Source of the DNA: a virus
Lineage: Duplodnaviria; Heunggongvirae; Uroviricota; Caudoviricetes
DNA length: 64,000 bases
IMG/VR virus record: IMGVR_UViG_3300048904_000202
Coordinates: 68,007 to 132,006 of that record
Direction: 5' to 3' (one strand)
Shown piece by piece: positions 7,642 through 33,125 of the stretch (position 1 is its first letter; every line of letters begins with the position of its first letter). A program made the position numbers and the translations under genes. The notes under the pieces were generated by a model. The model made no database searches. It was given only the letters and a program-made list of their open reading frames with translations, and was not told the origin of the DNA.

Positions 7642-7890
7642 CCCGAATGGGGTGCAAATGGGGTGCAAATCCGGCTTTGTTCTGGGTAGCGGCAGGGGTT
7701 TTCAGGAGAGAAACCGAGGGGAGAAGGGCCTTTTAGGCCAAAAACACTGCCTCCCGAAGGCAAGAGCCGTCAAAGTGAATCACTCCAGCGGCTCTCAAAA
7801 TTGGCGGTTTTCTGCGGGTTTCAGGAGAGGTGCTTCTGAGGCCTGTCTTACTGCACCCCAAATGGGGTGCAAATGGGGTGCAACATTTAG
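7641..7890. repeat. att-like region with nested direct repeats (candidate integrase arm-type sites)
   Basis: Two copies of CCCCRAATGGGGTGCAAATGGGGTGCAA (7641-7676, 7855-7890) bracket two copies of GGGTTT(T)CAGGAGAG (7696-7712, 7816-7830); gene-free, abuts integrase 3' end. Confidence 0.5.
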
Positions 7891-9296
7891 GCCGCTTTGA
7901 GGTGCTTCACCGCGTCCTCGGCGGTCTTTTTCGTTTTGGCGCGCCGGGCATTCCGGGCAGCGTTGATCTGTTTGCGGCGCTTCTCGGCCGCAGCTTCGCG
8001 CTCTTCGGCCGTCATGCCCTGTGCCACGTTGAGACGGGTGAAGTGATCCGGCTGTACGTCGAGGCCGGCTCGCTCGACGATTGTCAGCTTGCCTTTCTCG
8101 CCATTCGCGACGGCGAACTTGGCGCACCACGCGTCGGCCGCCGCATTCACTTCGTCCCAGATATCGGTCAGACCTGCCTTCACCGATGCCATCTTCTTGG
8201 GGTTGTAGTGCTTGTAGATCGCGCTGGTTGAGTTCTCGCCGATATGCCCCATGAGGCGGCTGATCTGCGTCTCGTCGCACTCGTTCCATTCCAACATCGA
8301 CGCTACCGTGTGACGGATCGTCTTCGGCACCACGTCCGGTCCGAAGCCGAGAACCTCGCGCATCGTGTTCCAACGGGTGGTCAGGCGCTTGAACCGATTG
8401 CCGTCCTCATCTTTGACCCACGGGCCGGTCCAGCCCTCCATCAGGGCGCTGATGCCGGAGATCGCCGGCACGACGGGGTTGCGCTTCTTCGTGAGCGGGG
8501 CGTCCTTGGGCTGGAGATCGAGCAGATCGAACTCAGGCTTGAACTGATCCTCGACGATGAACTTGAGCGCCGCCTCCGGGCGCATCGCCGTTGCGAGTTG
8601 GAGCAGGATGAAGTGCCAAAGCGGTTCGTCCGAGCGTGCAAACCCGATCATCGCTGAAAGCTCGGCCATGGACAGGACTCGGTCGCGGCGCTTTGGCTTG
8701 ATCTTGCTCGTGAGCTTCTTGCCCGGACCGGGAGCGATAGTGGCGCGCTTCTCTTCAACCGCGTGGTTCAACGCCGCCATGATGATCTGGATATTCTTCT
8801 TGAGCGAGGCGTCGGCCAGCCCTGCGGAAGAGTTGCTGTACTCCTTGCCCTTCCAGACGATCGAGTAGCTGTGCGGCTTCGAGCGCCACCGATGCCAACG
8901 CGCCCATACAGCCGGCGTCAGTTCGGTGAACTTGCAGGCGATACCTGCTTCATCCTGTTTGAGAAACGCGATGAAGGAACGCAGGATCGAGGAGATCGCG
9001 CCAGTTTCCTGTTCGTCGATCGTTTCGCACCCATGCTCATCGTAATAGCGAAGCAGTTCGACGACGACCGATACCTCGGCGTCGTTGTTCTTGGGTGCGT
9101 GCGCGTTGATCCGCGTTAGATGCGCCTCAATGACCTGCTTGGCTTCGGCTACATCCCGGCAACGAGTGCTTCGATACCGATTGCGTCGTTTGTCGGGGTC
9201 GTACCACGCGATCTGCCAGATGTCGGGGGACGCGCCGTCGTCTCGCTTGTCGAGCCAGTAGTCTCCGACGATATGGGGGCTGTCTTCTCGTGCCAC
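7887..9296 (-). CDS. int: tyrosine-type site-specific integrase (P4-like)
   Basis: 469 aa; N-terminal arm-binding-like segment (YWLDKR...WQIAWYD), R..HxxR block (IRHTVASML), catalytic Tyr context YKHYNP; GTG start with GAGGAGA RBS. Confidence 0.9.
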   Translation of the reverse strand: MAREDSPHIVGDYWLDKRDDGASPDIWQIAWYDPDKRRNRYRSTRCRDVAEAKQVIEAHLTRINAHAPKNNDAEVSVVVELLRYYDEHGCETIDEQETGAISSILRSFIAFLKQDEAGIACKFTELTPAVWARWHRWRSKPHSYSIVWKGKEYSNSSAGLADASLKKNIQIIMAALNHAVEEKRATIAPGPGKKLTSKIKPKRRDRVLSMAELSAMIGFARSDEPLWHFILLQLATAMRPEAALKFIVEDQFKPEFDLLDLQPKDAPLTKKRNPVVPAISGISALMEGWTGPWVKDEDGNRFKRLTTRWNTMREVLGFGPDVVPKTIRHTVASMLEWNECDETQISRLMGHIGENSTSAIYKHYNPKKMASVKAGLTDIWDEVNAAADAWCAKFAVANGEKGKLTIVERAGLDVQPDHFTRLNVAQGMTAEEREAAAEKRRKQINAARNARRAKTKKTAEDAVKHLKAA

Positions 9297-18234: not shown

Positions 18235-18452
18235 AATTTCAAGTGTTCCCCGTTACAGGCCTTGGTCAACCAGAGCGCTCCGATGACCGGTGGGTGTTGA
18301 TGCCATGGTTCTCCACAGACCTCGCACAAACAGTTCTGATCTGTCCGCCTACACTCACAAGCATCGAACCTGATGCGGTCTTCCTCCGACAGCAGATGAT
18401 AGGCATTGCCATTATGGTCATGCTGTTGTCGGAGGTCGAAAGGTATCATCAA
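18231..18452 (-). CDS. Cys-rich small protein
   Basis: 73 aa with CECRRTDQNCLCEVCGEPWHQH cluster; ATGA overlap with nadV. Confidence 0.45.
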   Translation of the reverse strand: MMIPFDLRQQHDHNGNAYHLLSEEDRIRFDACECRRTDQNCLCEVCGEPWHQHPPVIGALWLTKACNGEHLKL

Positions 18453-19945
18453 GCCGGCGTCGCCGGTTGTGACCGCCAGAAGCGGGCGGCCTCGCGGACC
18501 TGCTCGAAGGTAGGCGGGTTCACCAACTCGCCGTTCTCAAAGCTGGTCTGCAACCAATCCCGCTCGCCGGACTGGAGTTCGTCCGGATGGATCGTGACAA
18601 ACGTCTCGTACGGCTCCGGAAAATGGTCAACCGTCCGGCGGACGACCGCGAAACGGCCGGCCTTTGACCGCTTGGACGGATCGGTAGCGACTTCCTTGCG
18701 GATCGCGAAGACGTCGCCGTCGATCGTCACCTCCGATGCCTTCAAGGCGAAGCGATGCGTATCGCGCTCGACCTCGTGCATCATCAAACCGCCACCGGAG
18801 CCGAACACGAGATTGTCGACCGACCACTTACGATAAGCGACGCGCTGGAGAATGCGGCGAAGGGACTCTTCGTTGATCCCGTCGCCTTGAATTAGCCGCA
18901 CGTAAGCCGGCAGTACGCGGTAACCCTTCTCGTTCATCATCCAGCCGGTGTGCTTACCGATCAGATCGAGACAGTGACCGACGTTGTCGACTGGATCGCC
19001 CGAGTCTGGCCGCAAAACCAGCGACATGTTCGAGTCGATCAGCTTCTCCCGTAGACCACAACCGCCCTTGTTCTGCGGCGTCAGCCACATGTTGATCGCG
19101 TTGTCCTGATCGTAGGTATCGATCACAACCGAGACCGGATAGCGACCGCCGAGCGGATTAACCTCTTGGCCGAACTGCTCGATGATGTGTTCGAAGAACG
19201 CCTGCTCGTTGTCCTTGCCCCACGACGTAGTCACCGAGTGTTCCGACGCCGGGATCGAATATCCGAGCATCGCGTCGGTGCGATAAGTGTGCTGGCCGAA
19301 CAGGATACCCATAAGGTTATCGGTCACTTGGAAGTTGACCAGATGAGCCATACCGGAGACCGCTGCGTCCTCAGTGGTGCGGCAACCGCGTGCCGAGAAG
19401 TCGACGACCTTGAACTCGGCCGTACCTTCGGTGCCGGTTTCGGCCAGATACCGCTCGATCAGCCGCCACCAGCGCATGCCACGCGTCGCGATCGTGGTGG
19501 GCATCCAGCAGCGCATGAGGAGCGTTTCGACCGTGATGCACAGGCCGGCGCAGTCCGGATCGAGCGACTCGACCGTCGCTAGGACCGTGCCCTGTGGAAC
19601 GACGACGCCTTCCGGAAGCTGCTTGACGCGCATCGGCAGCTTTCCGCCATGACGTTCCCAGACGATCATAGCCGTATCGGCATCGAACGGCACGCCGTGT
19701 GCCGGCAGGAACTTGGCGGCGTGGTTGATGAATTTCGGCGTCCAAAGCTGGGTCAGGAAGTACCGAAGCGTGTAGGTATTGCCGAACCACATGACTTCAT
19801 TGAACTCACCACCCTTCCGGGCTTCGAGATAGCCGTACTCTGCGGTCAGGCCGGGATGTTGGAACTTCCAGTGGGACGCCTTGTAGGTGTCCTTGTTCAT
19901 GATCGGCTGCGTCAGAAGCTCGCCGATATTATCAATATATTCCAT
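18449..19945 (-). CDS. nadV: nicotinamide phosphoribosyltransferase (NadV/NAMPT)
   Basis: 498 aa; N-terminal NKDTYKASHWKFQ (DSYK-type motif) and NAMPT-like length; AAGGGAG RBS. Confidence 0.85.
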   Translation of the reverse strand: MEYIDNIGELLTQPIMNKDTYKASHWKFQHPGLTAEYGYLEARKGGEFNEVMWFGNTYTLRYFLTQLWTPKFINHAAKFLPAHGVPFDADTAMIVWERHGGKLPMRVKQLPEGVVVPQGTVLATVESLDPDCAGLCITVETLLMRCWMPTTIATRGMRWWRLIERYLAETGTEGTAEFKVVDFSARGCRTTEDAAVSGMAHLVNFQVTDNLMGILFGQHTYRTDAMLGYSIPASEHSVTTSWGKDNEQAFFEHIIEQFGQEVNPLGGRYPVSVVIDTYDQDNAINMWLTPQNKGGCGLREKLIDSNMSLVLRPDSGDPVDNVGHCLDLIGKHTGWMMNEKGYRVLPAYVRLIQGDGINEESLRRILQRVAYRKWSVDNLVFGSGGGLMMHEVERDTHRFALKASEVTIDGDVFAIRKEVATDPSKRSKAGRFAVVRRTVDHFPEPYETFVTIHPDELQSGERDWLQTSFENGELVNPPTFEQVREAARFWRSQPATPA

Positions 19946-19957
19946 GTCGGCTCCCTT

Positions 19958-21047
19958 CTAAATGGTCAGATCGCGGAACGAGTTCAGGTAGAACTCGAAC
20001 GGATTGTAATGATCCTCGAACAGCATCGAGCGGACCACCTCGTCGGTATTCCACCACCGTGCCTGCCGGGCATCGTCGGCGCCCTTCACGATAGGACGCG
20101 GCAGCGATGCCGGGATCAGCAGGCCGAACGCCATCGAGAAGGTGACTTCGCGGTTCGAGCGCCACGGGTTGTCCAGCATCTTCTCGCCGCGTATCCACGA
20201 CGCGAGCGTGTCGCGGGTGATGAAGTCGTTGTGTTCGACGATGCCGGTTTCCTGATCGACCTCGTCGAGCGCCGCGTCGAGGAAGGTCTGGTAGGCGCGC
20301 TTGTGTCCGCCGGGCGATGCCCAGAGACCCTTGCCGGGCATACGATCGCGCTGCACGAGGCAGACGGCGCCGGCATGGAACATCCACATGTCAGCACACG
20401 GGAACTGCTGCGGATCGCCGGTGTAGGGATTGGGCTGGAACTCGGTCAGATAGTTTTTCATGAACTTGTACTCGTCGCGCATGAGCGCGAACTGAGCCGT
20501 GTTCACCCACTGGCGCAGGAACAGATAGGTGCCCTGCGGAATGATCTGGACCTCCGAGCGGTAGATGCACTCGACCGCCGCTGCTGGGTCCCCGGCGTCG
20601 TAGATCGTGTTGCGGATGTCGGTGGCCGAGACCAGAGAATCGGTCGCACCGGTGACAGCCTGCGTCGAGACCGAATCCCAGCCTCGGAATAGCTTGAGGT
20701 AGTAGGACGATCCGTCCTTGGAGAAGCCGACCAGCGCAATGCGGGGCTCGTGATCGAACGACAGGCGCTTGGCCTGCTCGGTCACGACCTTCTGCACGTC
20801 GCGCACCCAGAGCAGGTCGTTGGCGCGGTCCTCGATCCCGAAGATGAATACGCGATCGTTCTCGGCCGGCGTGAGCGACGCTCGGATCATCTGGCTCACC
20901 TCGTCGAAGGTGTGCGGGTTCTTGAAGTGTGGCGCTTCGTTGACCGATCCGATGGTCACGAATGTATATTGTGCCGCGACCAAGCCGGCGCGGATGTTAG
21001 CGATATGAGCGCTGGTGGGTGGCCGCATCCGGCCTGCGAAAACGCAG
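19958..21047 (-). CDS. nadM: bifunctional NMN adenylyltransferase / Nudix hydrolase (NadM-Nudix-like)
   Basis: TTG start after CTAGGGAGACACAAC; N-terminal GRMRPPTSAHIANI resembles the GRFQPFHxGH nucleotidyltransferase motif; C-terminal degenerate Nudix box GGHKRAYQTFLDAALDEVDQETGI. Confidence 0.7.
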
Positions 21048-21069
21048 ATATCGTGCAAGTTGTGTCTCC

Positions 21070-21531
21070 CTAGTTGTTGGCGATGATGTTCACTTCGATG
21101 CCGAAGCTCTCTTCGAACTTTTTGGCGAGTTCGCGGAGCGTCTTTCGGGCATCGTTCTCGTTGCCGCCAGCAGGTCCAAGCTGGATGTAGGAGGCAACCC
21201 ACGAGGTATTCTCGATGCATACACGGAGGATCGCCTTTTCCAGATTGGTCAAGGGCTCCGCCAGCGTCAGCATGTAGACCATTTCACAAAGGCCCGTGGA
21301 TGCCTCCATGATCGCCTCGCGATTCCAGCCTTCCTTTAGGAGGATCGCTAGCGGGTCTGTCGGGTCTTCCGGCTCGCGCTCCGGGAGATCGCTAATTTGT
21401 GCAAGGCCCCACATCATGGCCTCAAGTTCTTTGGTCTGGAGGCGCAGCCTCGCGTGATTCTCGGTCATATGCACTCCTAAGTTGAGTGCGAGTAGCAGCG
21501 CCCAGCCATTTTTGCTAGTGGGAATGAGCAT
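21070..21531 (-). CDS. hypothetical protein
   Basis: 153-aa ORF; stop TAG overlaps the nadM leader; a 56-aa ORF (about 21534-21704) lies upstream. Confidence 0.45.
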   Translation of the reverse strand: MLIPTSKNGWALLLALNLGVHMTENHARLRLQTKELEAMMWGLAQISDLPEREPEDPTDPLAILLKEGWNREAIMEASTGLCEMVYMLTLAEPLTNLEKAILRVCIENTSWVASYIQLGPAGGNENDARKTLRELAKKFEESFGIEVNIIANN

Positions 21532-27187: not shown

Positions 27188-27343
27188 CCGTGCGTTTCCC
27201 TTGTACGGTCGCGTCTTGGTCCGCGAACATTTGCTACGTTTGCCGGTCGGCCACAGGCCGATCTTGTTGATCTTCCCACACCGTGCGCAAACTACCTTGT
27301 TCGCTCGCAGCGGTAGTATCTGGGCATGGAAGACGTGATTCAT
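27184..27343 (-). CDS. small zinc-ribbon protein (52 aa)
   Basis: Below ORF cutoff; ATGA overlap with AAA+ stop; CARCGKINK...KCSRTK motif. Confidence 0.4.
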
Positions 27344-28566
27344 GCCGCGAGCAGCATCTGGCGCATCTCGGCACCCGACATCGACACGTCGGTCGAGACG
27401 GCGAAATTGCTCGGGTCCTTCCCGAAGAGGGCCGCCATGCGCTGAAACTCCGAAAAGCCGAGGTCGCGCAACTCGATCGCCATATCGAAACGGCCCGGCC
27501 GGCGGAGCGCTTCGTCGAGGCGCTCGGGATGGTTCGTTGTCGCGATCGTCATGAGGCCGTCAGGCGCGATCAGGCCGTCGAGGATGTTGAGCATCGCCGA
27601 GAGCGTCACCGGCTTCTTGGGGCCGTCAGGTCCTTCTTCGCCTGTCGGGGCAGGGTTTTGCGCCGGCACGTTCCGATTGGTGTTCGCGCCGGCCGCGTCG
27701 AAGTCCTCCAGCACGAGAAGCTTTTTGTTCCAGTCCTGCCCATTCGCGACGAGATCGGTAAGCACCTGATCGCTGTCCACCGAACCGAGGTTCAGATAGT
27801 AGATCGAGCGGCCGAGGGCGGACGCCAGCGCGTGAATGAGAGACGATTTACCATTGCCCGGCGGTCCGTAGAGCAGCACGCCGATGCGGTGAGGAAGACC
27901 GAGGCGGTGGTTCTCTTCACGCTTGGTCGAGAACTCCGCGAGGCGGTTGAGGATCATATTCGCCGCGTCGTCTGCGGTGAATATGGTATCCATGCTCCGC
28001 AAGGGCAGCTTGCCGGCGCGATTCCACCACGAGCCCGAGTTGATGTAGAGCGGGACGGAGGTAAACTCTTCGTCCGAGGTACCCGCCATGCGCTTCACGT
28101 CCTCGGCGAAAGCCTCGACCACCCTCTTCGATCGTGTGAAGAACGTGACCTCGGTGTGTTCCTTGAACTTCGAGGTGTTGTCCGCTTCCTCGCGCTGGCG
28201 ATGTACCAACACGAGATGGCGGCGATAGAAACCGATGTGCGTACCATAGCCGACAGCAAGGCCGTGGTGCTTGGTCTGGTAATCTTCTTCGATCGAGTCC
28301 CACTTCTCCTCGGCCGAATAGTTGAAGTTGCGAGCGGTCTTCTGCCACACGACATTCTTCGTCACGTAGCGGACCACGGCGTCATAGTCCGGAAGGTCGT
28401 TGTTCCAACGGACCTCTACCGTGACGCACTTCTTGAGGAAGCCCCAGAGCTTCATCGGTACCGACCGCATCAGGTAAGTCGCGGTGGTCGCCGGCCCGGC
28501 GACGAGGGCCGCCTGCATGATCTGGTTGTGCTGGACCATGCTGGACAGAGAGGCGAACAGGCTCAT
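27340..28566 (-). CDS. BCS1-like AAA+ ATPase
   Basis: Walker A LLYGPPGNGKSSLIHALA, Walker B LLVLEDFDA, sensor region SAMLNILDG, TTNHPERLDEALRRPGRFD; about 190-aa N-terminal BCS1_N-like domain; start revised to MSLFASL. Confidence 0.8.
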   Translation of the reverse strand: MSLFASLSSMVQHNQIMQAALVAGPATTATYLMRSVPMKLWGFLKKCVTVEVRWNNDLPDYDAVVRYVTKNVVWQKTARNFNYSAEEKWDSIEEDYQTKHHGLAVGYGTHIGFYRRHLVLVHRQREEADNTSKFKEHTEVTFFTRSKRVVEAFAEDVKRMAGTSDEEFTSVPLYINSGSWWNRAGKLPLRSMDTIFTADDAANMILNRLAEFSTKREENHRLGLPHRIGVLLYGPPGNGKSSLIHALASALGRSIYYLNLGSVDSDQVLTDLVANGQDWNKKLLVLEDFDAAGANTNRNVPAQNPAPTGEEGPDGPKKPVTLSAMLNILDGLIAPDGLMTIATTNHPERLDEALRRPGRFDMAIELRDLGFSEFQRMAALFGKDPSNFAVSTDVSMSGAEMRQMLLAA

Positions 28567-28568
28567 GG

Positions 28569-28790
28569 TCAGTCCTTGATGCTCAGGGTGATCTCGCGGG
28601 GTGTGCCCGTGAAGCCGCCATTCGACGCTGCGTTCGAGGCGGCCGAGCGGGTGTTTAATATGCGTGCACCTTCGAGCGTATCGCTCAGCGATACGCGGGC
28701 GGTGTAGGCTCCCGGACTGGTCGCCTTGCGGGTCGAGACGAACTTGCCGTCGTCGGTCTGAAATACAAAATGAGCCAAGATCAGCCCCAC
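28569..28790 (-). CDS. hypothetical protein
   Basis: 73 aa, GTG start overlapping upstream stop. Confidence 0.35.
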   Translation of the reverse strand: MGLILAHFVFQTDDGKFVSTRKATSPGAYTARVSLSDTLEGARILNTRSAASNAASNGGFTGTPREITLSIKD

Positions 28791-29285
28791 TTGATGAGAT
28801 TGTTGATTGGATCGAGGTCGAGCGGGAAGAACTCGCGTTGGGTGGCGATCTTCTTCTTTTCAACCAGTTTGCGGCACTTGCGGGCGCAGTCCGTGGTTCC
28901 TACGAAACCTTCGAACACCGCCAGAACATCCGCCTCGAAATCGAGCAGCATGGCCTCGTTTCGCATGGCACCGGCGGCCTCACCGTAGCGGTCCCAATCT
29001 GCGAAATAACGCCGCCAAGGGACGCTGTTATCCACCGCCCATTCGAGGGCGAATGTATCAACGCCGCGAGCGCATCCGGCACCGAGTTCGACGATCGGGC
29101 CGAACCTCTCGCCGAAGTGAATCGAGTCAAGATGACCGTTGACGTACCCTCGGTCCTTGATTTCCCGGCCACCGGTGACAGCTATGCGAAAACCTACTGG
29201 GTCCGGAAAGGAAGCAGGTAGCGACCTCCCGACCTGCAAGATATTCTCCAGATCGTAGAAGCTCAGCGGCTTGAGTTTCACCGCG
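28781..29285 (-). CDS. SLOG-fold (DprA/DUF2493-like) protein
   Basis: GTG start in GTGA overlap; motifs AVTGGREIKD and GAGCARGVDTFALEWAV resemble DprA/LOG-like Rossmann proteins. Confidence 0.55.
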
Positions 29286-29448
29286 TCACCACGTGGAGTA
29301 GGTCGAGCAAGATGCAGGTCCCGATGAATCCAGCAATCGTCAGCACCAAAATGGTCGCGACAATCGTCACCGGATCGCGCGGAGGCCATCCACCGGGGTC
29401 GGCCGAGCGGCCGGCGACCACAGCCAGCGTTGTGAGTGCGGGGTTCAT
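29283..29448 (-). CDS. small membrane protein (55 aa)
   Basis: Below ORF cutoff; fills the gap 29286-29449; two hydrophobic helices. Confidence 0.35.
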
Positions 29449-29449
29449 C

Positions 29450-29998
29450 CTACTTCTCGATGAGGGTAAGAGGACCGGCCACGCCGTCCTTTATTGACGC
29501 GAAGGTGTCGCTTTCGATCACGGCGATGCCATTGAAGCCGCGCCCGGTGTAAACCGGCCATCCCTTGTAGGTGTACGCCCAGCGCTCGCCTGTGGTGGTG
29601 CGTCCCTTGTCGGGGCAAATATACTCGTCGTCGAGGCGATCGAACTCGCGTTCGGACATGAGAATGACGACCGTCTTCTTCGAACCCTTGGACGGTAGCA
29701 ATCGATCGACTCGATGCGTGGCCGAGGACAGGACCTCGATTTGCTCACACGCCTGCAACCAAGAAGCTGTGCGGCGCTTGGCTTCATTGGCCGCCTTCTG
29801 CTCCGCAAACCAGAGCTTGCGGAGCAGGTGGGCGATGCCGCGCGGATGGAGACCGAACAGCGTCCGGCTCAGCCACGTCGGCTTCTTCTCGATCTGGCGC
29901 GCGACAACGGCCACGTCCACGCTGTTAAACGGCATCGTAGCGGTGTTGTGGCTTGGGCCGGTGTCGGCCAGATCAGAGAGATCGGGAAGGGGCATCAG
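29450..29998 (-). CDS. hypothetical protein
   Basis: Start revised to MPLPDLSDL (TGATG overlap). Confidence 0.5.
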   Translation of the reverse strand: MMPLPDLSDLADTGPSHNTATMPFNSVDVAVVARQIEKKPTWLSRTLFGLHPRGIAHLLRKLWFAEQKAANEAKRRTASWLQACEQIEVLSSATHRVDRLLPSKGSKKTVVILMSEREFDRLDDEYICPDKGRTTTGERWAYTYKGWPVYTGRGFNGIAVIESDTFASIKDGVAGPLTLIEK

Positions 29999-30291
29999 TT
30001 GGCTCGCGAAGTGAAGAGGATGCTCGCCGCCAGAACGGCGCTGATGAAAATCGCGGCGCGGATGAGCCACGGATAGAACCGTTGCCAAATCTGCTGCTTC
30101 TGCCGCTGGCGACCGACCATCAACTCGTAGAGCATGGCCTGATTTTCGAAGGTCGTATGAAGCGTGCCAGAGATTTCGAAGGAGCCCTTCTCCAACGAAA
30201 CCTTGGGGAGGATTCTGACGGCTGGATTCGTGATCTCCAGCTTGAGCGTCTTCAACTCGTAAACCTGTCCGTCGATGACCATGTCAGGCAT
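29995..30291 (-). CDS. membrane-anchored protein (C-terminal TM)
   Basis: 98 aa ending in WLIRAAIFISAVLAASILF. Confidence 0.5.
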   Translation of the reverse strand: MPDMVIDGQVYELKTLKLEITNPAVRILPKVSLEKGSFEISGTLHTTFENQAMLYELMVGRQRQKQQIWQRFYPWLIRAAIFISAVLAASILFTSRAN

Positions 30292-30635: not shown

Positions 30636-31145
30636 TCAACCCAAATAGATGGCGCGCTCGTGTTGGCGCCGATCGACGAGGCCGGCCTTGCCATGATTGG
30701 TCCACCGCAAGAACTCGTCGGCGGCTGCCTTATAGTTGCCGGCGCGGTGGTATTTCAGGAGCGTAGAGGTTTCTTCGGCGTGGAGCCCGCAGTTGAACGC
30801 GAAGCTGACAAGGGCATCGAACTGGTTCTGCGAGGTGGGTGCACCACCTGCGATAAGGTGTTCGACACCATGCTCGAAGAACGCGACATTGGCCGCGAAA
30901 AGCTGCTCGGCGATGGCGAGGGTGATGACCGTCTTCGGGCCGACATCTCGTCCCGTATGCCCCCATCCAATGGTCCAAACTCCTTCGGAGTCCAGATACG
31001 CCGTGAGGGCCGGCTGACCGTGCGGAAGAAGGACGGTATGGCCGTTGACCATCTTGCCGCCGGTCTCGAAACCCTTGAGGTAGAGGGTCATCGTTTGGGT
31101 GATATGCATGGCAGTTATGATTAACCATGACCGCCAGAAAGTCAA
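30636..31145 (-). CDS. phage lysozyme (glycoside hydrolase family 24 endolysin)
   Basis: GH24 signature ...FETGGK...TIGWGHTG...; true start probably ATG near 31107 downstream of motif-B promoter TTGACT-N16-TAATCA (31146-31165). Confidence 0.8.
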   Translation of the reverse strand: MTFWRSWLIITAMHITQTMTLYLKGFETGGKMVNGHTVLLPHGQPALTAYLDSEGVWTIGWGHTGRDVGPKTVITLAIAEQLFAANVAFFEHGVEHLIAGGAPTSQNQFDALVSFAFNCGLHAEETSTLLKYHRAGNYKAAADEFLRWTNHGKAGLVDRRQHERAIYLG

Positions 31146-31151
31146 GCGAAA

Positions 31152-31424
31152 CTAACTCTTTGGGAAGCTAGGTGGCTTCGGCAAGGTAGGCTCCGGCTTA
31201 TCCGGGTCAGGCGTCAGGCGACACTTGCCAGAGCAGTGCGGGACCGGCTGTTCCTTACTCGACTGCAACATGCATTTCCCCGGCGGACAAATCGCACTGA
31301 GTGGCGGTTCACGCCTCTCCATCTTGCCGAACGTCCGAACCGGAGTCGGGGAATTGATGCGGATGGAAAGCGTGGGCTTGCTGGGAAGACCGCCTTTTGG
31401 ATTGTAACTGGCACCGTAGGTCAT
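31152..31424 (-). CDS. proline-rich small protein
   Basis: 90 aa with GGAGAG RBS; Cys/Pro-rich; no signal peptide. Confidence 0.4.
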   Translation of the reverse strand: MTYGASYNPKGGLPSKPTLSIRINSPTPVRTFGKMERREPPLSAICPPGKCMLQSSKEQPVPHCSGKCRLTPDPDKPEPTLPKPPSFPKS

Positions 31425-31447: not shown

Positions 31448-31476
31448 CCCGGCCCGAGAAGTTCTCGGGCCGGGTG
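31448..31476. other. perfect 14-bp inverted repeat (CCCGGCCCGAGAAC/GTTCTCGGGCCGGG) hairpin
   Basis: Lies right after the SPFH gene stop; not followed by a U-run. Confidence 0.5.
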
Positions 31477-31481
31477 ACTGA

Positions 31482-32303
31482 TCAGTTGACCTTGATGAAG
31501 GGAACCTGACCGCCGCCGGTGTACTGCGGTAGCACACCGTTCCACTTCTCGATCGCGCGCTGCTGGAGGATTTCCGGGTTGGTGCGGAGCGCTTCGCCCT
31601 CGATCTGCGTCGCCTTGGCGTCGGCCTCCGCCTTGGCAACCTTGGCGCGACCGTCTGCTTCGACAGTGGCGACGTTGGCCTGCGCGGCGAGCGCCTGCTG
31701 TTCGTTGGCGATCTTGGCGTTGATCTGACTGAGGATAGATTGCGGGATACGGATCGCTGACGCCCAGTAAAGCTGCTCGATGTGCAGGCCGAGCGGCTCG
31801 AAATAACGTCGCACGTCGCCGAGCGCGCCGTTGATCAGGTTGGTCTTCTGCGGGCCGTAAATCTGCTCGACCGTCATGCGGCTTGCGCGCTCGGCGAGCG
31901 CGGAGCGGACAGCGTTGCGAACCGGGCCGGCGATGATACCTGCCATGTCGGTGCGATACTTCTGGAACAGGATCGGCGCCTTGGTGGGATCGACGCGGTA
32001 GGCGACCGAAACGTCACCGTCGACCGTGAGGCCGGACTGGTCCTGAAACTGGAAGCTCTCGTCGGCATCCTTGCCTTCGGACTTCGTCGCGGTCCACGCA
32101 TAGGTGTTGGTGAACACCGGGTATTCGTAGATCGTGGTGCCGAGCATGGTGAAATAGGTGCCGACCGGGAGCGCGGTGTTCGAGACGCCGGCACTGGAAC
32201 CATATTGCTCAACCTTGACGCCGACATGTCCGGGCGTGACGCGCGAGCAGGCACCGAGCGCCATCGCGGCGACCAGTCCCAAGATGAGGGTAACCTTCTT
32301 CAT
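31482..32303 (-). CDS. SPFH/band-7 (HflC/stomatin-like) lipoprotein
   Basis: Start revised to MKKVTLILGLVAAMALGAC (lipobox LGAC); SPFH core plus C-terminal Ala/Glu-rich coiled coil; ATGA overlap with upstream gene. Confidence 0.75.
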   Translation of the reverse strand: MKKVTLILGLVAAMALGACSRVTPGHVGVKVEQYGSSAGVSNTALPVGTYFTMLGTTIYEYPVFTNTYAWTATKSEGKDADESFQFQDQSGLTVDGDVSVAYRVDPTKAPILFQKYRTDMAGIIAGPVRNAVRSALAERASRMTVEQIYGPQKTNLINGALGDVRRYFEPLGLHIEQLYWASAIRIPQSILSQINAKIANEQQALAAQANVATVEADGRAKVAKAEADAKATQIEGEALRTNPEILQQRAIEKWNGVLPQYTGGGQVPFIKVN

Positions 32304-32533
32304 TTCTTCTTGTCTCCTGTCATTTTTGCCAGCCGGTACAATTTTCGAGCGGCGGTGAAGGTGAGGGCGGGGAGCATGACCGTGAGCGCGATTGCCGCGA
32401 TCAGCGCCCCGTCGTTGTGGAGGTTTGCCAACGCCGGCACCGCGACCCCGATCACGAACACGGTTGCCACCGCGAGCAGGGCGGATAGGCCCCACAGTGC
32501 CAATAGCCGCGAATCGTCATTCATACTGGTCAT
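32300..32533 (-). CDS. small two-TM membrane protein (holin-like or SPFH partner)
   Basis: 77 aa, two hydrophobic helices, basic C-tail; ACGGAGAAATG RBS downstream of a motif-B promoter (32534-32590). Confidence 0.5.
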   Translation of the reverse strand: MTSMNDDSRLLALWGLSALLAVATVFVIGVAVPALANLHNDGALIAAIALTVMLPALTFTAARKLYRLAKMTGDKKK

Positions 32534-32741
32534 TTCTCCGTTGATGGTGCATCGAAACTAACGCTGACAGTCAAAAGGTCAAGCGAAACCTATCTCGCTG
32601 GTTGGTATTCCCAATAGTCTCCGCCGTAAGCTCCAACACGGCGACGCTCGACCGTTTCGAGCCAGATCATGGTGACCTTGTTGTCGGCCCAGCGATCCCA
32701 AACCGGATACCACGCGAACCATCGGTGCCATTCGTACTGCC

Positions 32742-33125
32742 TCAAGCAGACCACCCAGCCGGCGCCGAGCGAAGTTCGATGCCGAACGCGTAATGCTTGT
32801 ATCCGATGCTGATCAGCCCGATCTTGATCTTGGCGAAGCGGAAGTGCCAGCCCGGCGGCGTAGAGCTTTTCAAGCCGTCGTCCGCCACGTTGATGATCGT
32901 GAGCAGGCCGAGGATGTTCCAGACGCGGACCTTGGACCATTCCGTCGTGGTCTGGTTCCAGTGATGGCGGATGCCAATGAACCGTCCCATGTCGCGCGGA
33001 AATGTCCGCCAGTGACCGGCGAGACCATCCTTGGTGTCCCATCGATAGAAGAGGTTGGGAACCTTGATTTCGAAGCCGTCACGATGACCGCGATCGGACA
33101 CCTCACGCGTGAAGCGAGCGAGCAT
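32742..33125 (-). CDS. hypothetical protein
   Basis: Start revised to MLARFTREV with strong RBS GGAAGGGAGA; a Trp-rich about 51-aa ORF may follow (32590-32745). Confidence 0.45.
   Translation of the reverse strand: MLARFTREVSDRGHRDGFEIKVPNLFYRWDTKDGLAGHWRTFPRDMGRFIGIRHHWNQTTTEWSKVRVWNILGLLTIINVADDGLKSSTPPGWHFRFAKIKIGLISIGYKHYAFGIELRSAPAGWSA

Follow-up and report, generated by a model that had tools for sequence, protein, structure and literature searches.

An SPFH lipoprotein and its two-transmembrane partner form a promoter-to-hairpin cassette beside a phage lysozyme gene

The SPFH cage proteins of known structure, among them prohibitin, erlin, stomatin and the HflK-HflC pair (8rrh, 9vvj, 9z7u and 7vhq), are built from SPFH1 and SPFH2 domains, a long coiled-coil helix and a C-terminal cap segment. 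HflK and HflC are encoded by two paralogous genes, each with an N-terminal transmembrane (TM) anchor, and the QmcA-YbbJ system of Escherichia coli (8z5g) represents a second bacterial arrangement, in which an SPFH gene forms an operon with a gene for a small NfeD-type membrane protein. Here we analyze an SPFH gene of a phage, together with the gene of its small membrane partner, in a 64,000-nucleotide stretch of viral DNA (Caudoviricetes; positions 68,007 to 132,006 of IMG/VR record IMGVR_UViG_3300048904_000202), which we call the window and number from its first letter. The SPFH protein is a predicted lipoprotein whose gene lies close upstream of a lysozyme gene; an earlier reading made from the DNA alone (the sequence-only reading) had placed the pair and a third small gene inside a lysis cluster, where holin and spanin genes are expected, and had called this placement unusual.

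Among phages, the closest described systems are gene pairs of PHROG families 200 and 1130, namely gp19/gp20 of N4-type phages, SSU5_061/062 of Salmonella phage SSU5 and gp114/gp113 of Burkholderia phage Maja; in phage BcepF1, the PHROG 200 family carries the annotation 'HflC/HflK family inner membrane lipoprotein'. As in the window, a small two-TM gene in these isolates stands directly 5' of, and often overlaps, the SPFH lipoprotein gene, and the proteins share a loop motif, a C-terminal EKW(D/N)GxLP tail and a lipobox. They differ from the window in sequence, with 29-41% identity only, and in location, since the window cassette stands beside a lysozyme gene. That second property is found in the Kayviruses of Staphylococcus (phage K, MSA6), for which the order holA-lysK-x-mbpV-mbpS(SPFH)-tgl was described in 2020, together with the suggestion that MbpS might help Tgl secretion (PMC7150955); the placement had thus been published before it was called unusual. 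Here again a small membrane-protein gene overlaps an SPFH gene from the 5' side, among lytic-enzyme genes. MbpS, however, is 24% identical to the window protein and belongs to phages of a Gram-positive host, hence one with no periplasm, whereas MbpV, with its single TM helix and long charged tail, is only a weak match to our profile of the partner family (E about 1e-3). An SPFH gene beside lytic enzymes is neither unprecedented nor typical. The literature searched treats the family only in remarks made during annotation and, for the Kayvirus genes, in a single paragraph of discussion; the P. multocida prophage protein PM0222, possibly a further member, has been described there as HflK/C-like.

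Our comparison of the window with related phage contigs, isolate phages and bacterial chromosomes indicates that the SPFH pair is an independent promoter-to-hairpin unit in a variable slot, and its place beside the lysozyme looks incidental rather than like a new lysis mechanism. The unit and its immediate neighbors, every gene of which is on the minus strand, are laid out as follows.

32578..32592, minus strand: promoter-like motif TAGGTTTCGCTTGAC upstream of the pair, with 2 mismatches and a CTTGAC -35-type element
32300..32533, minus strand: gene for the two-TM protein, PHROG 1130, partner of the SPFH lipoprotein
31482..32303, minus strand: gene for the SPFH lipoprotein, 273 amino acids, Band_7 and PHROG 200
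31448..31474, minus strand: GC-rich hairpin directly 3' of the SPFH stop codon, with a 12-bp stem and a 3-nt loop
31152..31424, minus strand: gene for a 90-amino-acid Pro-rich protein, a lysozyme companion, adjacent to the module and outside it
30636..31155, minus strand: exact promoter motif (31155..31141) and GH24 lysozyme gene (likely coding sequence 31109..30636, 157 amino acids), adjacent to the module and outside it

The lipoprotein opens with MKKVTLILGLVAAMALGAC, read from the sequence as a typical lipoprotein signal peptide with the lipobox LGA/C19, and its ATG overlaps the stop codon of the upstream two-TM gene (ATGA). Residues 21-215 match Pfam Band_7 (PF01145; E = 1.4e-20, 74.6 bits against a cut-off of 23.6 bits), and the whole protein (residues 1-272) matches phrog_200, 'lipoprotein' (E = 2.7e-70). 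An AlphaFold2 model (pLDDT 75) has strands over residues 19-104, helices over 109-171 and a long helix at 188-241, corresponding to an SPFH alpha/beta core followed by a 54-residue Ala/Glu/Gln helix. When this model was compared with the PDB by Foldseek, the top 30 matches were all SPFH cage proteins (prohibitin, erlin, stomatin and HflK/C in the lead), with probability 1.0, and the lipoprotein profile also matches the prohibitin-2 coiled coil. The sequence-only reading had proposed an SPFH lipoprotein with an Ala/Glu coiled coil and a small two-TM partner, and had let the proposal hang on an SPFH fold in a predicted structure; that fold is present, and the assignment is borne out. The mature protein has 254 residues in a globular SPFH fold, with no C-terminal TM helix, and ends in a conserved tail that reads AIEKW(N/D)GxLP across homologues and AIEKWNGxLP in the window. 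It differs from the solved SPFH cages in sequence (14-19% identity), in its anchor, which would be an N-terminal lipid and not a TM helix or hairpin, and in being a predicted homo-oligomer candidate with a separate two-TM partner. Its closest relatives are encoded by uncultured phage contigs (76-88% identity) and by chromosomal genes of Sphingomonadales (up to 67%). An NCBIfam search with the two-TM protein, the lipoprotein and the 90-residue protein matched no family, hence no HflK or HflC model, and PADLOC gave no defense-system match for any of the three.

The open reading frame (ORF) of the partner runs for 77 codons from the ATG at 32533, or for 74 from a second ATG at 32524. The second start is likelier because a GGAGA ribosome site fits it better, and it is also the choice of gene callers; of the 77-residue two-TM protein described earlier, the two TM helices stand and the length is probably 74. 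These helices lie at residues 10-28 and 43-61, are joined by a loop of about 10 residues, and are followed by a basic C-terminus, RKLYRLAKMTGDKKK. Because of this basic C-terminus, the positive-inside rule would place the loop on the periplasmic side, making the partner a predicted N-in/C-in inner-membrane protein. The loop is VPALANLHNDG in the window; across the family, all members of which have two TM helices, the conserved loop pattern is (V/A)PxL(I/V/F)(N/D/S)x(H/K)xD. The window protein matches phrog_1130 at E = 2e-4, and N4-type gp19 and SSU5_061 match the same family at 3e-20 and 1e-30; PHROGs files it under 'moron, auxiliary metabolic gene and host takeover'. Neither the partner nor three of its homologues contains a Pfam domain, and no NfeD, OB-fold or other soluble domain was found in them, which indicates that the partner is not an NfeD protein. 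A phmmer search with the single 74-residue sequence against 1.84 billion representatives returned 6 matches, a figure that is not informative on family size.

To follow the partner across loci, we used a profile hidden Markov model built from 19 small proteins encoded upstream of SPFH genes, the window protein among them, as tblastn with the small proteins as queries recovered hardly any matches in the fetched loci. Over about 1.2 Mb of these loci, 66 have a profile match 5' of the SPFH gene and on its strand (39 of 80 bacterial loci, 14 of 32 from IMG/VR, and relatives). The match is directly upstream in nearly all of these, NINP13076 having its partner two genes upstream, and below E = 1e-5 there was no match anywhere else in the 1.2 Mb. 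The window protein scores 4e-20, being itself a seed, and for members outside the seed set, which come from 47 further loci, the E values range between 1e-6 and about 4e-19. The lipoprotein and the two-TM protein are therefore a conserved pair, strictly linked to each other as PHROG 200 and PHROG 1130.

SPFH lipoprotein homologues occur in 656 isolate-phage records, including those of Kayviruses, LUZ24-like phages, Vequintavirinae (KB57-like) and CbK-like phages. We inspected the gene context in fourteen isolate-phage lineages and found the pair in 11 of them, N4-type gp19/gp20 included. SSU5, KB57, NINP13076, Ruegeria V10, Maja, phi644-2 and Hali carry it, and the pair itself is confirmed in LUZ24-like, KB57-like, N4 (gp19/gp20), phiP27 and P1-like phages. 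The partner family is under-annotated. Directly upstream of annotated SPFH lipoprotein genes, phiP27 and the P1-like phage MH422554 have partner ORFs that carry no annotation (L134:3256-3444, 62 amino acids, and L135:2733-2969, 78 amino acids, respectively). In the CbK-like phage no partner was detected, and the Kayviruses gave a weak single-TM candidate only. The idea that the partner substitutes for a missing TM anchor was rejected: 22 TM-anchored homologues have a partner, and 17 lipobox forms have no detectable one.

The pair is not confined to phages. We kept 80 chromosomal loci, from Sphingomonadales, Caulobacterales and unclassified proteobacterial metagenome-assembled genomes, in which the lipoprotein is 54-67% identical to that of the window, and the pair is complete in the 39 counted above. 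Six chromosomal loci, on inspection, proved to have housekeeping neighbors (among them RecF, HIT, a helicase-nuclease, PHA synthase and MnmA) and not to lie in prophages, indicating that cells carry the pair as an ordinary module of their own and phages as a cassette. In Sphingomonas and Novosphingobium (Sphingomonadales, L059-L115), the SPFH protein falls into three subfamilies: lipoproteins with a partner, 64-67% identical to the window protein; TM-anchored forms with a partner (58-61%); and TM-anchored forms with none (54-60%), whose genes adjoin ApbE, MnmA or the like where the locus was inspected.

Turning to the boundaries of the cassette, the motif that precedes the pair at 32592..32578 has 7 matches in the window where chance predicts 0.9, a count reached in 0 of 100 shuffles, in line with the recurring promoter motif that the sequence-only reading had noticed at this point. 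An exact copy, TTAGTTTCGCTTGAC, lies 5' of the lysozyme gene at 31155..31141, and in two relatives of the window (contigs L121 and L122) the form GTTTCGCTTGAC stands 5' of the pair and also 5' of the lysozyme and DUF1653 genes. The TAG within the motif that precedes the SPFH pair terminates a gene of about 55 codons, which ends at 32590; the stop codon of the 90-residue protein's gene likewise falls within the lysozyme promoter motif. At the other end, the hairpin at 31474..31448 forms a perfect 12-bp stem with a 3-nt loop from 13-nt palindromic arms, so that an earlier description of it as a perfect 14-bp hairpin was right about the structure and not about its size. Its centroid energy is -26.8 kcal/mol (z = -3.3 against shuffles) and the U tract after it is weak; the hairpin is likely the 3' boundary of the cassette, as a terminator or an RNA stabilizer. 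The GC content of the cassette (63%) and that of its third codon positions (GC3 0.83) are inside the range of neighboring genes and so give no sign of recent acquisition.

Beyond the hairpin lie the genes of the 90-residue protein and the lysozyme. The lysozyme is a soluble GH24 enzyme (Pfam Phage_lysozyme, E = 3.6e-35; phrog_7, endolysin), called as 157 amino acids, and its assignment to a promoter motif of its own stands. The 90-residue protein, which had been described as Pro/Cys-rich, is the product of a real gene: its homologues, of which 5.8 billion proteins yielded three only, are 69-76% identical, and in the alignment with contig L121 (73% identical) most visible nucleotide differences are silent, although these were not counted codon by codon. 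It has four invariant cysteines (C-x4-C ... C-x3-C) and no signal peptide or lipobox, and its AlphaFold2 model, built from 3 sequences, reaches pLDDT 52 and was assigned no fold. The spacing of the cysteines invites the guess of a zinc ribbon, and the protein may bind metal and accompany or regulate the lysozyme.

Comparison with six related contigs indicates where this gene belongs. It lies directly upstream of the lysozyme gene in all four sequences that have it, which are the window, L121, L128 and L129, and the last two lack the SPFH pair; conversely, L120, L122 and L123 have the pair and not the 90-residue gene. The 90-residue gene thus goes with the lysozyme, and the three genes do not form one unit driven by the upstream promoter, as had been proposed. 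The distance between pair and lysozyme varies in the same set. In L121, whose lipoprotein is 88% identical, an additional small ORF separates the pair from the 90-residue gene and the lysozyme; in L122 (83%), the lysozyme is 3.4 kb from the pair, between a SLOG gene and a BCS1-like AAA+ gene; and L120 (79%) and L123 (76%) show no lysozyme within 10 kb and about 1.4 kb downstream of the pair, respectively. L128 and L129 encode lysozymes 85-87% identical to that of the window, with the same flanking genes, and in them the 90-residue gene and the lysozyme follow an unrelated lipoprotein gene that fills the slot.

L129:2459-2989 and L128:~444-971: gene for an alternative 176-amino-acid lipoprotein (MKRTAIAILAAALALTGC...), at the position that corresponds to window 31482-32533

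This alternative lipoprotein belongs to no Pfam family, and its cassette starts from a separate promoter-like sequence of the CTTGACA type and closes with a GC hairpin, after which come 4 T in L129 and 2 in L128. For lipoprotein cassettes, this position looks like a hot spot.

These contexts bear directly on whether the pair is a component of a lysis module, in which the SPFH scaffold and the two-TM protein would organize or time the action of holin and endolysin, whether by forming rafts through which holin triggering or the export of lysozyme is controlled, or with the two-TM protein itself serving as a class II holin. In the window and in L121, the pair does lie close upstream of the only recognizable lytic enzyme, with one small gene between them in the window, and shares its promoter motif with the lysozyme; the Kayvirus mbpV-mbpS genes sit between lysK and tgl, where the export role for Tgl was suggested (PMC7150955). 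Yet the link to the lysozyme is lost among relatives at 76-83% identity, a different lipoprotein replaces the pair in L128 and L129, and the same pair occupies bacterial loci that are not prophages. Among the isolate-phage lineages inspected, moreover, the SPFH gene is away from lysis genes in 13 of 14, the Staphylococcus Kayviruses being the exception. Its locations are instead early or accessory regions, the vicinity of the repressor in Hali and the interval between regulators and xis/int in phiP27; in an N4-type phage, annotated terminators flank the pair and a gene annotated for superinfection exclusion adjoins it. The lysis functions of N4 have been assigned by experiment to gp60-gp63 (preprint, 10.1101/2025.11.12.688109), and not to gp19/gp20. 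The expectation that the pair fills the place of holin and spanins is not supported, in view of this free-standing occurrence in chromosomes, the 13 lineages and N4, and we regard a part in the lysis module as distinctly unlikely.

A further point for lysis is that no holin or spanin was identified next to the window lysozyme, a result that also leaves the phrase 'inside the lysis cluster' unconfirmed. The partner does share with class II holins its small size, two TM helices, N-in/C-in topology and charged, here basic, C-terminus, but these features are not holin-specific, and it differs from a holin in being tied to an SPFH gene and not to a lysozyme and in occurring in non-prophage chromosomal loci. 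Inner-membrane spanins (i-spanins) are type II membrane proteins with a long periplasmic coiled coil, their outer-membrane partners (o-spanins) are lipoproteins of about 40-60 mature residues, and unimolecular u-spanins combine a lipobox with a C-terminal TM helix. By contrast, the loop of the partner has about 10 residues, the SPFH lipoprotein is globular with its 254 mature residues, and the 90-residue protein lacks a signal peptide and a lipobox. Other membrane proteins do stay with the lysozyme: a 98-residue protein with a single, C-terminal TM helix (tail-anchored; window 29995-30291, minus strand) and a 56-residue protein with one TM helix (29278-29448, minus strand) hold their positions downstream of it in L128 and L129. 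Since N4 gp63 is a C-terminally anchored pinholin, these two are better candidates for a holin or pinholin than the SPFH partner.

A nearby AAA+ gene had been brought into connection with the SPFH protein, since bacterial SPFH proteins normally scaffold AAA proteases.

28566..27340, minus strand: gene for a BCS1_N + AAA protein (Pfam), 408 amino acids, ~2.9 kb from the pair

On this proposal, the locus would be an SPFH-NfeD-type system, with the small protein as NfeD analogue and the nearby BCS1-like AAA+ as the scaffolded ATPase. In prokaryotes, SPFH and NfeD genes frequently share an operon (ref. 7 in PMC9872710), an SPFH gene next to a small membrane-protein gene is the layout of QmcA-YbbJ as well, QmcA ranks 25th among the Foldseek matches, and the AAA+ gene is indeed present 2.9 kb downstream. 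The proposed partnership with NfeD nevertheless fails, as the partner has neither an NfeD nor any other Pfam domain, and its gene comes first, unlike that of YbbJ. The two SPFH proteins differ in orientation too: QmcA faces the cytoplasm, and the window protein would face the periplasm. The AAA+ itself (PHROG 7485) has no peptidase domain in Pfam, and of the earlier claim about it only its presence survives. It is conserved beside a SLOG/YAcAr-family gene (window 27340-29281, minus strand; L122:7673-10568), and in L122 the lysozyme lies directly between the two. It stays with the SLOG gene and the lysozyme in L128, where the pair is missing, and it is absent near the pair in L120, L123 and the other phages that carry the pair. 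Nothing ties it to the SPFH protein, and we consider an NfeD-type system very improbable. BCS1 translocates folded protein across a membrane, and by that analogy a link of the AAA+ to lysozyme export is conceivable.

The resemblance to HflK and HflC raises another possibility, that the lipoprotein joins or imitates the host HflK/C cage around FtsH and so alters the turnover of phage or host membrane proteins, with possible consequences in temperate phages for the choice between lysis and lysogeny. Such a role has been put forward in annotations of temperate phages (PMC10269572; PMC4936722), the structural matches include HflK/C-FtsH complexes (7vhq, 9cz2 and 7wi3), and the lipobox predicts a periplasm-facing protein, as HflK and HflC are. 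Prohibitin and erlin match better than HflK/C, however, and no NCBIfam HflK or HflC model is matched. The cassette also has a single SPFH gene, with a lipobox and thus a lipid anchor in place of a TM helix; the two-TM partner has no counterpart in the HflKC-FtsH system; and the pair is common in strictly virulent phages, where control of lysogeny is irrelevant. We judge this mimicry unlikely.

Taking the evidence together, we think it reasonably probable that the segment 32592..31448 is a self-contained accessory cassette, whose products assemble an SPFH scaffold facing the periplasm, and that it belongs to envelope conditioning, not to the lysis machinery. The structural and genomic part of this reading we hold with high confidence, whereas the physiological role, argued from analogy, is put forward tentatively. 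The cassette would comprise a promoter, two translationally coupled genes and a hairpin. After secretion and lipidation, the SPFH protein would be expected, from the solved SPFH assemblies, to oligomerize through its long helix and conserved C-terminal tail, and to surround, from the periplasmic side, a patch of inner membrane that contains the partner with a ring or cage, much as HflK/C, prohibitin, erlin, stomatin and QmcA would suggest. The conserved loop of the partner (PxLxN/DxHxD) may then contact the membrane-proximal SPFH domain. In phages, the contexts described above suggest that the pair would serve as a swappable envelope-conditioning function, which may stabilize the infected cell's inner membrane or divide it into compartments, and so act in the manner of superinfection exclusion or membrane protection. 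The pair would accordingly be neither a holin, a spanin nor an accessory of the endolysin, and its position beside the lysozyme here would reflect insertion into a variable slot.

Several observations weigh against this interpretation. The residue at the +2 sorting position is mixed, being Ser in the window, Asp in SSU5, Tyr in N4-type phages and Glu or Asn in other enterobacterial homologues, so the +2 rule does not assign the lipoprotein to the inner or the outer membrane. Two independent lineages, one comprising this phage and L121 and the other the Staphylococcus Kayviruses, place the pair beside lytic enzymes, which leaves room for a lysis-related role in some phages. The occurrence of the pair in chromosomes outside prophages favors a general membrane function over a dedicated exclusion function, and the literature searched contained no experiment on any member of the pair.

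A bolder proposal is that the PHROG 200/1130 pair is a widespread and unrecognized phage device, in which a periplasmic SPFH cage around the two-TM protein controls inner-membrane events. We rate this as rather unlikely. If it were true, such a device could block DNA entry by superinfecting phages or set the threshold of holin triggering, and the arrangements beside lytic enzymes in the Kayviruses and in the window would be functional and not accidental. The locus itself is ordinary, one more copy of an SPFH-lipoprotein cassette already present in hundreds of genomes. The family deserves attention, with PHROG 200 and PHROG 1130 strictly linked and a partner that has no Pfam family. Because both N4 and E. 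coli lend themselves to experiment, what an SPFH scaffold facing the periplasm does during infection is directly testable, and the answer would bear on the poorly understood SPFH proteins of bacteria.

The remaining features of the window lie outside the cassette.

32590-32757, minus strand: gene of about 55 codons (...QYEWHRWFAWYPVWDRWADNKVTMIWLETVERRRVGAYGGDYWEYQPAR), missing from public gene calls, with a 65-residue homologue in L128 and L129
31-1221, plus strand: RtcB RNA ligase gene
7887-9296, minus strand: gene for a tyrosine-recombinase-like protein (phrog_1, E = 2e-25)
18449-21220, minus strand: NAD-salvage pair, NAMPT and cytidylyltransferase genes

A megablast search with 10 kb around the locus gave no match to isolate phages, indicating that this phage has no cultured close relative. 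Proteins identical to those of the window have been recorded from a metagenome contig of 164 kb, and the source of the window is probably a large phage. Many small genes of no assigned function accompany the RtcB, recombinase-like and NAD-salvage genes, the latter three being typical auxiliary genes of large phages.

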